From Escherichia phage UFV-AREG1, in the sequence record KX009778: 64,000 bases of DNA, one strand, 5' to 3'. The translations under genes were made by a program, and so were the position numbers. Of the stretch, positions 3,699-4,646 are shown piece by piece. The notes beneath the pieces were generated by a model. That model was not told the DNA's origin. It ran no database searches and was given only the letters and a program-made list of their open reading frames with translations. Each line of letters opens with the position of its first letter. Position 1 is the stretch's first letter.

Positions 3699-3775
3699 TG
3701 GCCAGGGTGAAAGGATTCTAACCTTTAACCTGCGGTTTAGAGGACCGCTACTCTATACAATTGAGTTACACCCCG
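3699..3775 (-). tRNA. tRNA-Arg (anticodon TCT), CCA encoded
   Basis: Manual cloverleaf: acceptor CGGGGTG/CACCCTG, D-stem ACTC/GAGT, anticodon stem GCGGT/ACCGC with loop CCTCTAA, T-arm AAAGG-TTAGAAT-CCTTT. Confidence 0.8.
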
Positions 3776-3901
3776 TAATTAGTTCACAGCAATACCTACT
3801 CCAACAATCAAGATGTCTTCACACGAAATTAAGAGAAAAGTGATCAGTTCAACCCTTATAATCGCGTCAAGTAGATATTAATGTGACAACTGTCACAAGT
3901 T

Positions 3902-3976
3902 TGGCGGACATGCATGGATTCGAACCATGGACCAATTGATTAACAGTCAACTGCTCTACCACTGAGCTACACATCC
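3902..3976 (-). tRNA. tRNA-Asn (anticodon GTT), CCA encoded
   Basis: Manual cloverleaf: acceptor GGATGTG/CATGTCC, D-arm GCTC-AGTGGTA-GAGC, anticodon loop CTGTTAA, T-arm CATGG-TTCGAAT-CCATG. Confidence 0.75.
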
Positions 3977-3980
3977 AAAT

Positions 3981-4067
3981 TGGTGGGGAGTGATGGAGTC
4001 GAACCACCCGAGTCGCAATGACAATGGATTTACAGTCCACACCGCTACCTCTACGGGATAACTCCCC
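3981..4067 (-). tRNA. tRNA-Tyr (anticodon GTA), type II with long variable arm, CCA encoded
   Basis: Acceptor GGGGAGT/ACTCCCC, anticodon stem GTGGA/TCCAT with loop CTGTAAA, long variable arm, T-arm GGTGG-TTCGACT-CCATC; D-arm pairing is irregular. Confidence 0.6.
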
Positions 4068-4076
4068 AAATTAATT

Positions 4077-4153
4077 TGGTGACCCAGACCAGATTTGAAC
4101 TGGTAACCTTTCCCTTATGAGGGGACTGCTGCTAACCATTGAGCTACAGGGCC
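4077..4153 (-). tRNA. tRNA with CAT anticodon (Ile-lysidine type or elongator Met), CCA encoded
   Basis: T-arm ACCAG-TTCAAAT-CTGGT, anticodon loop CTCATAA; acceptor stem has one mismatch and one G-U. Confidence 0.6.
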
Positions 4154-4154
4154 T

Positions 4155-4230
4155 TGGTGCTGATTGACGGAATCGAACCGCCGACATCCTCATTACAAGT
4201 GAGGTGCTCTACCTACTGAGCTAAATCAGC
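4155..4230 (-). tRNA. tRNA-Thr (anticodon TGT), CCA encoded
   Basis: Acceptor GCTGATT/AATCAGC, D-arm GCTC-AGTAGGTA-GAGC, anticodon stem CCTCA/TGAGG with loop CTTGTAA, T-arm GGCGG-TTCGATT-CCGTC. Confidence 0.8.
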
Positions 4231-4232
4231 AA

Positions 4233-4319
4233 CGGAGGCGATAGGATTTGAACCTATGAGTCGCCGGAGCGACTGCCGGTTTTCAAGACCGGTGCATTAA
4301 ACCACTCTGCCACGCCTCC
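4233..4319 (-). tRNA. tRNA-Ser (anticodon TGA), type II
   Basis: Acceptor GGAGGCG/CGCCTCC, anticodon stem CCGGT/ACCGG with loop CTTGAAA, long variable arm, T-arm ATAGG-TTCAAAT-CCTAT; no encoded CCA. Confidence 0.75.
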
Positions 4320-4321
4320 AG

Positions 4322-4395
4322 TCTCCATACAAGGATTTGAACCTTGGACCTCCTGATCCCAAATCAGGCGCTCTACCAAACTGAGCTACACGGAG
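4322..4395 (-). tRNA. tRNA-Pro (anticodon TGG)
   Basis: Acceptor CTCCGTG/TATGGAG (two G-U), D-arm GCTC-AGTTTGGTA-GAGC, anticodon stem CCTGA/TCAGG with loop TTTGGGA, T-arm CAAGG-TTCAAAT-CCTTG. Confidence 0.75.
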
Positions 4396-4405
4396 TAAAT
4401 TAAAT

Positions 4406-4479
4406 TGGAGCGGATAATGAGAATCGAACTCACATCATCAGATTGGAAGTCTGAGGTAATGCCATTATACGATATCCGC
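4406..4479 (-). tRNA. tRNA-Gly (anticodon TCC), CCA encoded
   Basis: Acceptor GCGGATA/TATCCGC, anticodon stem TCAGA/TCTGA with loop CTTCCAA, T-arm GTGAG-TTCGATT-CTCAT. Confidence 0.75.
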
Positions 4480-4485
4480 AAACTT

Positions 4486-4572
4486 TGGTACGAGAAGTGG
4501 GACTCGAACCCACAAGGAAATCATTCCGCAGCATTTTAAGTGCTGTGCCTTTACCAATTTGACCATTCTCGC
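4486..4572 (-). tRNA. tRNA-Leu (anticodon TAA), type II, CCA encoded
   Basis: Acceptor GCGAGAA/TTCTCGT, anticodon stem CAGCA/TGCTG with loop CTTAAAA, long variable arm, T-arm TGTGG-GTTCGAGTC-CCACT region. Confidence 0.75.
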
Positions 4573-4573
4573 G

Positions 4574-4646
4574 CTGGGAATAAAGGACTCGAACCTTTGC
4601 ATCTAGCAGTCAAAGTGCTATGCCTTACCAACTTGGCTAATTCCCA
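4574..4646 (-). tRNA. tRNA-Gln (anticodon TTG)
   Basis: Acceptor TGGGAAT/ATTCCCA, anticodon stem TAGCA/TGCTA with loop CTTTGAC, T-arm AAAGG-TTCGAGT-CCTTT. Confidence 0.75.

Follow-up and report, generated by a model that had tools for sequence, protein, structure and literature searches.

In bacteriophage T4 the transfer RNA (tRNA) genes are arranged in the order Gln-Leu-Gly-Pro-Ser-Thr-Ile-[segB]-Arg-rnaD-rnaC, where segB encodes a homing endonuclease and rnaC and rnaD specify the species I and species II RNAs. A middle promoter is located just upstream of the cluster, a single transcript is thought to span all the tRNAs, and transcription is presumed to end just after the species I RNA gene (PMC2330249). 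Both of these RNAs belong to the tRNA precursor (PMC2330249), and what they do is still not known (PMC12685909). From T2L, a block comprising the Met, Tyr, Asn and Arg tRNAs has been sequenced and was published in 2008 (PMC2330249). Structured non-coding RNAs of phages and prophages that often lie close to tRNA gene arrays, and whose function is likewise not known, are further represented by the large GOLLD and ROOL RNAs (PMC12286853).

Here we describe the corresponding locus in a 64,000-nucleotide stretch of Escherichia phage UFV-AREG1 (sequence record KX009778; the whole stretch is referred to as the window), a Tequatrovirus. Its tRNA array is a known mosaic version of the T-even tRNA operon with nothing new in the gene set. 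The spacer between tRNA-Asn and tRNA-Arg, however, which T2L, T4 and T6 lack, encodes a conserved, strand-specific structured RNA that is apparently undescribed so far.

The Asn-Arg spacer encodes a structured RNA

Exactly ten tRNA genes, all on the minus strand, were located by ARAGORN in the 64-kb window, at positions 3699-4646. The gaps between them measure 0-10 nt, with the exception of a 126-nt gap between tRNA-Asn and tRNA-Arg (3776-3901). A preliminary description, prepared from the sequence alone, had proposed that this spacer could hold a processing site or a small RNA, and the covariation-backed structure found there supports that proposal well. Two features were assigned to the spacer:

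3784..3887, minus strand: three-way-junction RNA element (core 3788-3883), defined by RNAalifold, covariance model R1 and covariation
3882..3897, minus strand: P0 hairpin (UGUGAC-AGUU-GUCACA on the RNA strand), encoded by the palindrome TGTGACAACTGTCACA

From 5' to 3' the core consists of stem P1 (12 bp), a single G, stem P2, a GAA junction (J2/3), stem P3, another single G and the 3' strand of P1. In P2, an ACGCG/CGUGU base closes an internal loop and an apical hairpin that occurs in three versions, and P3 comprises 4 bp and a 7-nt loop. P1 can be extended by 4 nt on each side, with GUCA at 3884-3887 and GUGA at 3784-3787.

To assess covariation, 15 distinct copies were aligned with MAFFT, without fitting the alignment to the structure. 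Standard pairs fill 94.4% of the cells, compared with 36-52% in controls whose partners were shifted by 1-3 columns, and double-sided (compensatory) changes occur in 10 of the 28 pairs, a value reached by none of 500 shuffles; one pair in P3 is seen as AU, GC, UA and CG. Invariant G.U pairs occur at several positions. With covariance model R1, 20 sense copies reach 56-115 bits, and antisense sequences do not exceed 18 bits. The invariant G.U pairs and this gap between the strands indicate that the constraint acts on the RNA of the tRNA strand.

Three points weigh against this structural reading. The 15 aligned sequences are related, which inflates the shuffle-based statistics; one covariation measure, counting further pair types, failed to reach significance (38 of 500 shuffles); and the z-score of the single-sequence fold is modest (-2.2 to -2.4). 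A conserved loop-loop contact between P2 and P3 is possible, without covariation support: one register (A) is 90% pairable, with 165 of 500 shuffles doing equally well, and a second register (B) was rejected.

It is very improbable that the spacer has no RNA function at all and is a decayed tRNA gene or neutral filler, with a palindrome that arose by chance or acts at the DNA level, for example as an operator of the CRP type or as a target for recombination or for an endonuclease. Homing endonucleases do act throughout the locus (PMC2330249), and the palindrome fits the CRP core consensus and occurs only once in the window. The compensatory changes, invariant G.U pairs and strand asymmetry nevertheless favour selection for RNA structure, and neither a tRNA model (E up to 1) nor ARAGORN finds a match in the spacer. 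More widely, Rfam 15 has no match overlapping 3776-3901 on the minus strand with E up to 1, GOLLD, ROOL, ribozymes and riboswitches included. All three sense frames stop within 15 codons, leaving no open reading frame (ORF), and a consensus scan detected no internal promoter or terminator.

The element recurs in tRNA clusters of distinct phage genera

Conservation of the spacer extends to 354 phage records, with identities as low as about 75% in other genera, a level that is still high for neutral intergenic phage DNA and speaks against mere filler. Searches with two divergent versions of the element returned 228 and 368 phage records. Carriers comprise five T4-like genera (Tequatro-, Karam-, Jiaoda-, Gelderland- and Roskildevirus) together with some rV5-like phages, among them W70 of the Vequintavirinae. 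In every context the copies lie between or beside tRNA genes and on the tRNA strand, usually directly before tRNA-His: the element separates Asn from His in wV7-type Tequatroviruses and Gln from His in Karam- and Jiaodavirus, and in Roskildevirus tRNA-His follows immediately downstream. In Gelderlandvirus it is located about 30 nt upstream of Asn. The copy in the rV5-like phage W70 (our locus L008, 1120-1450) is 84% identical and lies between a tRNA-Gly and a tRNA-Gln, both unannotated and found with ARAGORN, which implies that a block of tRNAs and the element has passed horizontally between families of myoviruses that are not related.

The element is absent from T4, T6 and T2L, and model R1 finds nothing in the T4 locus; in the window, the spacer is its sole match. 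A T2L-like arrangement of the window was considered and rejected, since according to primer coordinates the Asn gene of T2L runs directly into Arg with no spacer. Among 185,579 bacterial and archaeal species genomes, a pattern scan followed by the covariance model yielded 28 pattern matches and no true copy, these scans detecting only copies that fit the pattern. Metagenomes contributed 14 copies, all of known T4-like types. In IMG/VR, a strict pattern retrieved five T4-like contigs, and a loose one gave a single true copy among 80 loci tested, the rest being nearly all chance matches. Literature searches found no earlier description of the element, although most subscription journals lay outside their coverage, making this weak evidence of novelty.

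The P0 hairpin and the lost tRNA-His

The preliminary description gave the exact coordinates of the perfect palindrome at 3882-3897, which proves not to stand alone but to be the accessory 5' hairpin of the larger element. The pattern TGTGA-N6-TCACA occurs nowhere else in the 64-kb window, against a chance expectation of 0.08 matches. In the window the palindrome fits the CRP consensus, but the arms are 10 nt apart in Gelderlandvirus and the left arm is missing in three genera (Karam-, Jiaoda- and Roskildevirus); with the arm spacing not conserved in homologues, an RNA hairpin is the better reading, and the CRP site was rejected. P0 alone folds at -7.2 kcal/mol. It is restricted to the Tequatrovirus and Gelderlandvirus copies, among which one compensatory change is seen (GUGACA/UGUCAC in STP4-a versus GUGACG/CGUCAC in SEA1).

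In most genera the core ends in ...AUAUUGAU, and tRNA-His (GUGGCCGUAG...) starts immediately thereafter. This linkage of the element to tRNA-His is probably ancestral. The tRNA gene was lost independently twice, and on both occasions its first four bases were kept, as GUGA in the window type and as GUGG in Gelderlandvirus. Together with the preceding AU, these remnant bases pair with the conserved ...UGUCACAU at the 5' edge of the element, so that the extended P1 measures some 18-20 bp and, in the window, contains a single U.C mismatch. The 3' arm of P0 (UGUCACA) doubles as the 5' strand of the P1 extension. P0 and the extension exclude each other and are predicted to be equal in energy, with -29.5 kcal/mol for the P0-enforced fold and -29.8 kcal/mol for the fold with extended P1.

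Where tRNA-His follows the element, it has U at position -1 in wV7 (our locus L003, 3470-3545) and in our loci L004, L005, L133, L134 and L136. In wV7 its residue 73 is C. No G-1 is thus encoded in these tRNAs, although G-1 is the main identity element for histidyl-tRNA synthetase (HisRS) in Escherichia coli.

These relations allow for a different role, in which the element is no free RNA but a device that acts in cis on the maturation or folding of the tRNA next to it, which was at first tRNA-His. The P1 extension would hide the first 4-5 nt of tRNA-His and P0 would compete with it, thereby timing or directing RNase P or RNase III; in the window, where tRNA-His is gone, only a relic would be left, or the device would have come to act on tRNA-Arg. 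The element indeed abuts tRNA-His without a gap in four T4-like genera, its helix overlapping G1-C5 of the tRNA, and a tRNA-His with U at -1, C73 and no G-1 suggests unusual needs in 5' processing. A helix of about 18-20 bp approaches the size of an RNase III substrate, and the two conformers are predicted to be equal in energy. Conversely, the element is well conserved without tRNA-His in three contexts (before Arg in the window, Asn in Gelderlandvirus and Gln in W70), the Jiaodavirus and W70 copies have neither P0 nor the extension, and simple sequestering leaves the conserved nucleotides of P2, P3 and the junction unexplained. We consider a cis-acting device unlikely, while giving it more weight than the other alternatives to a free RNA.

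A putative stable RNA of the tRNA operon

Minus-strand positions 2812-4743 are likely to represent an operon for tRNAs and stable RNAs, as in T4-like phages generally, with the spacer RNA inside it. Apart from the tRNA genes, it contains the following features:

4716..4743, minus strand: probable middle (MotA-type) promoter, with the MotA-box-like ATATGCTTTA at 4743-4734, 12 nt and TATTAT
3031..3148, minus strand: homologue of rnaD (T4 species 2 RNA), 99% identity to T4 rnaD, 119 nt
2886..3024, minus strand: homologue of rnaC (T4 species 1 RNA), 98% identity to T4 rnaC, 139 nt
2812..2835, minus strand: intrinsic terminator at the operon end, a 10-bp stem (7 G-C pairs) and, after it, a T run

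The promoter was assigned by the MotA-type consensus. Its stretch of the sequence upstream of tRNA-Gln is identical to that of T4, and the upstream region as a whole is nearly identical. Right after the rnaC terminator, at about 2795-2811 on the minus strand, we also noted a T4 late-promoter-like TATAAATA within ...GGGGCTTTTTAGTATAAATAAG. In phage sutha, the nearest relative, the rnaD/rnaC stretch is annotated as two small 'hypothetical protein' coding sequences (our locus L001, 3183-3311 and 3317-3469), probably mis-annotated stable-RNA genes.

By analogy with the species I and II RNAs, the element is most likely a stable RNA excised during tRNA processing. Transcription starting at the middle promoter upstream of tRNA-Gln would include it in the poly-tRNA precursor, and a cut by RNase P at the 5' end of the downstream tRNA, combined with 3' maturation of the upstream tRNA, would release it. 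Its long flush terminal helix might then let it persist as a small stable RNA, as the T4 species I and II RNAs do. The ancestral unit would have consisted of the element and tRNA-His; the phage of the window would have lost the latter while keeping GUGA, and a foreign cassette of tRNA-Arg and a downstream ORF (ORF184, see below) now follows.

In every context, the location and strand of the element fit a stable RNA of a tRNA operon. The species I and II RNAs are likewise small non-tRNA RNAs of the same operon and strand, and both are present in the window; they differ in that they follow the last tRNA, whereas the element lies between tRNAs and is known here from sequence. Homology was rejected, as the T4 genes match 2886-3024 and 3031-3148 and not the spacer (blastn, model R1). 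GOLLD and ROOL have over five times the size of the element (GOLLD is often longer than 800 nt), adopt multi-pseudoknot folds and multimeric cages, and come from other hosts and phage groups than the element.

Three considerations count against a released stable RNA of this kind: the release is argued from analogy; the element has no sequence or covariance-model likeness to rnaC or rnaD; and the P1 extension and its predicted competition with P0 are suggested by conservation, calculated energies and a single compensatory event in P0.

Another alternative assigns the element an anti-defence role, as a decoy or inhibitor of a host nuclease that targets tRNAs, moving with the GUN-anticodon tRNAs for Tyr, Asn, His and Asp. 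The neighbours of the element are Tyr, Asn and His, joined by Asp in Karam- and Jiaodavirus; these four tRNAs are precisely what nucleases of the colicin E5 type target. The apparent horizontal movement of the element with tRNAs between unrelated phage families and its variable P2 tip would suit such a role, and a phage tRNA-Tyr is already an established counter-defence factor (PMC13096335). Neither hairpin loop, however, recognisably resembles an anticodon loop or a T-loop, and no protein is conserved across the contexts; we regard an anti-defence RNA as improbable.

A broader proposal joins several of these ideas. The RNA would constitute a new non-coding RNA family specific to tRNA arrays, with a bistable 5' end (P0/P1 extension) that gates maturation of the neighbouring tRNA (ancestrally a tRNA-His without G-1) or decoys tRNA-targeting immunity, within a mobile module of GUN-anticodon tRNAs (Tyr-Asn-His, in some cases Asp) that T4-like and rV5-like phages exchange. 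As a whole, we hold this proposal to be doubtful, and prefer an excised stable RNA.

The ten tRNA genes

The array reads Gln, Leu, Gly, Pro, Ser, Thr, CAT, Tyr, Asn, Arg, and the ARAGORN output agrees exactly in order and coordinates with the ten-gene array of the preliminary description. All ten genes score at or above the gathering cutoff of the Rfam tRNA model RF00005 (29 bits), nine of them at 54-75 bits and Tyr at 30.2 bits; the covariance model, suggested beforehand as a check on Tyr and Asn, thus accepts both. The individual genes are:

4573..4646, minus strand: tRNA-Gln (UUG), ARAGORN, RF00005 66 bits, 100% identity to T4
4486..4572, minus strand: tRNA-Leu (UAA), ARAGORN, 57 bits, 99% identity to T4
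4406..4479, minus strand: tRNA-Gly (UCC), ARAGORN, 63.3 bits, 99% identity to T4
4321..4395, minus strand: tRNA-Pro (UGG), no encoded CCA, ARAGORN, 66.8 bits, 100% identity to T4
4232..4320, minus strand: tRNA-Ser (UGA), class II, no encoded CCA, ARAGORN, 62.6 bits, 100% identity to T4
4155..4230, minus strand: tRNA-Thr (UGU), ARAGORN, 75.4 bits, 100% identity to T4
4077..4153, minus strand: CAU-anticodon tRNA, equal to T4/T6 tRNA-Ile (AUA reader), ARAGORN (labelled Met), 53.9 bits
3981..4067, minus strand: tRNA-Tyr (GUA), class II with an atypical D-arm, ARAGORN, 30.2 bits versus a cutoff of 29
3902..3976, minus strand: tRNA-Asn (GUU), ARAGORN, 72.6 bits, 84% identity to wV7 Asn
3699..3775, minus strand: tRNA-Arg (UCU), an allele unlike that of T4, ARAGORN, 59.3 bits

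A 3' CCA is encoded in seven of these genes and is missing from Gln, Pro and Ser.

The earlier statement that T4 has eight specificities, to which Tyr and Asn are additions, agrees with the T4 annotation of eight tRNAs plus rnaC and rnaD. The array is not novel, though, given that the same ten genes are annotated in sutha and that the Met-Tyr-Asn-Arg block of T2L had been published. The array region has matches in 912 phage records and is at least 80% covered in 136 of them.

The CAT and Tyr tRNAs are not evidently defective

The preliminary description pointed to structural oddities in the CAT and Tyr tRNAs, and cloverleaf drawings confirm these: the CAT tRNA has U6.U67 and G27.A43 mismatches, and the D-stem of tRNA-Tyr contains a C.C mismatch. 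The suspicion derived from them, that one or both tRNAs are weakly functional, found no support. The CAT gene is identical to the T4 tRNA-Ile gene (T4t002) over 74 of 74 nt and to the T6 gene over 77 of 77, so that its mismatches are common to the T4 and T6 genes. C34 of this tRNA presumably carries a lysidine-type modification, in line with the T4 annotation, so that AUA and not AUG is read. Its CCA is encoded in the window and in T6, and identity to T4 ends at nucleotide 74, where the segB flank starts. The CAT tRNA in the same slot of wV7 (our locus L003, 3103-3177) is merely 65% identical to that of the window, T4 and T6; among Tequatroviruses the slot is taken by one or the other of two distinct CAT tRNAs, which may be Ile2 and Met.

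For tRNA-Tyr, the RF00005 score is the lowest of the ten (E = 4.6e-4) and only just exceeds the threshold, which counts against a regular tRNA. In the E-value scan it was outcompeted by a sub-threshold tRNA-Sec match (34.4 bits, cutoff 47), and some records label the homologue 'tRNA-OTHER'. The ARAGORN cloverleaf contains the GUA anticodon, a long class II variable arm, G1-C72 and the A73 discriminator, the four identity elements of a bacterial tRNA-Tyr. The gene is identical to T6 tRNA-Tyr at 85 of 87 positions (98%), and the two differences are in the anticodon stem and the T-stem. The odd D-arm is a conserved trait of this family of phage tRNAs, its core (CCG...CGG and a UAGRGGUAG loop) being preserved in the Tequatro-, Karam- and Jiaodavirus copies. 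The tRNA family occurs in 1,353 phage records from T4-like, rV5-like, Felix-O1-like and T5-like phages. T6 tRNA-Tyr is visible on northern blots, and its overexpression rescues T6 from Septu, a defence that cleaves tRNA-Tyr (PMC13096335). Owing to the identity with T4 and T6, the conserved D-arm, and the expression and Septu rescue in T6, a weak function of the CAT and Tyr tRNAs is not supported.

By analogy with the T6 and T5 literature, the extra tRNAs, at least tRNA-Tyr, most likely serve to replenish tRNAs lost to tRNA-cleaving host defences, in addition to matching codon usage. A comparison of codon usage would not discriminate here, since the GUU and GUA anticodons each decode both synonymous codons. 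The closest precedents for counter-defence by a phage tRNA-Tyr are T6 against Septu and T5 against Retron-Eco7, and the window gene is nearly that studied in T6. In contrast to T6, in which Tyr adjoins segB, no segB lies beside tRNA-Tyr in the window, and the SegB-driven amplification route of T6 is unavailable in cis.

Mosaic relatives and the Arg-ORF184 cassette

The T-even clusters (T4, T2L, T6 and the wV7/RB type, the last with 10-11 tRNAs) share the operon, gene order, promoter region and terminator with the window. Six of the window tRNAs are 99-100% identical to those of T4, and the block from Gln to Asn together with the spacer is 92-94% identical to wV7-type phages, which have eleven tRNAs, His being placed between the spacer and Arg. 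The window has neither segB nor tRNA-His and carries a divergent Arg allele and ORF184. Tyr and Asn occupy the place of segB in T4.

The window Arg is 64% identical to the T4/T6 Arg and 66% to the wV7 Arg; T4 tRNA-Arg has no blastn match in the window, and in an alignment the window gene is visibly nearest the Gelderlandvirus type. It is followed by one more gene:

3123..3677, minus strand: ORF184, with a MUG113/T5orf172 domain, in the slot between tRNA-Arg and rnaD

The product of ORF184 (184 amino acids) matches Pfam PF13455 (2.7e-9) and PF10544 (3.4e-6) and belongs to phrog_5032, with weak matches to phrogs annotated as endonuclease or homing endonuclease. As a homologue of SegB (Seg-type GIY-YIG) it was rejected, the best BLASTP E value being 0.59. 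ORF184 may be a mobile nuclease-like gene that fills the role of T4 segB, though unrelated to SegB. About nine Tequatroviruses have the cassette of Arg and ORF184 at 99% identity, and VR7/VR26-type phages have it at 92-95%; the match starts exactly at the 5' end of Arg, and the last 26 nt of ORF184 overlap the rnaD homologue.

The SegB-consensus core GGTTCGAATCC is present in the tRNA-Asn of the window (3902-3976), and the preferred SegB cleavage site has been mapped inside T2L tRNA-Asn, the homologue of this gene (PMC2330249). In a co-infection with T4 or T6, the phage would consequently be a likely recipient of segB homing, losing the block of Tyr, Asn, the element and Arg.

Implications

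The array itself adds nothing new. Homing endonucleases have moulded its locus and so, according to recent work, has selection for staying ahead of host defences that cleave tRNAs. The element is a compact, covariation-backed motif of about 100 nt in several hundred coliphages of the kind used in therapy and in phages of Klebsiella, Enterobacter, Salmonella and Erwinia. That it was overlooked is probably due to its absence from the classical models T2, T4 and T6 and to annotation pipelines passing over it. At phage tRNA islands it joins the species I and II RNAs, whose function is unexplained after 50 years, and the larger GOLLD and ROOL. Being small and deletable in genetically tractable phages, the element offers an easy experimental route to the role of such RNAs.

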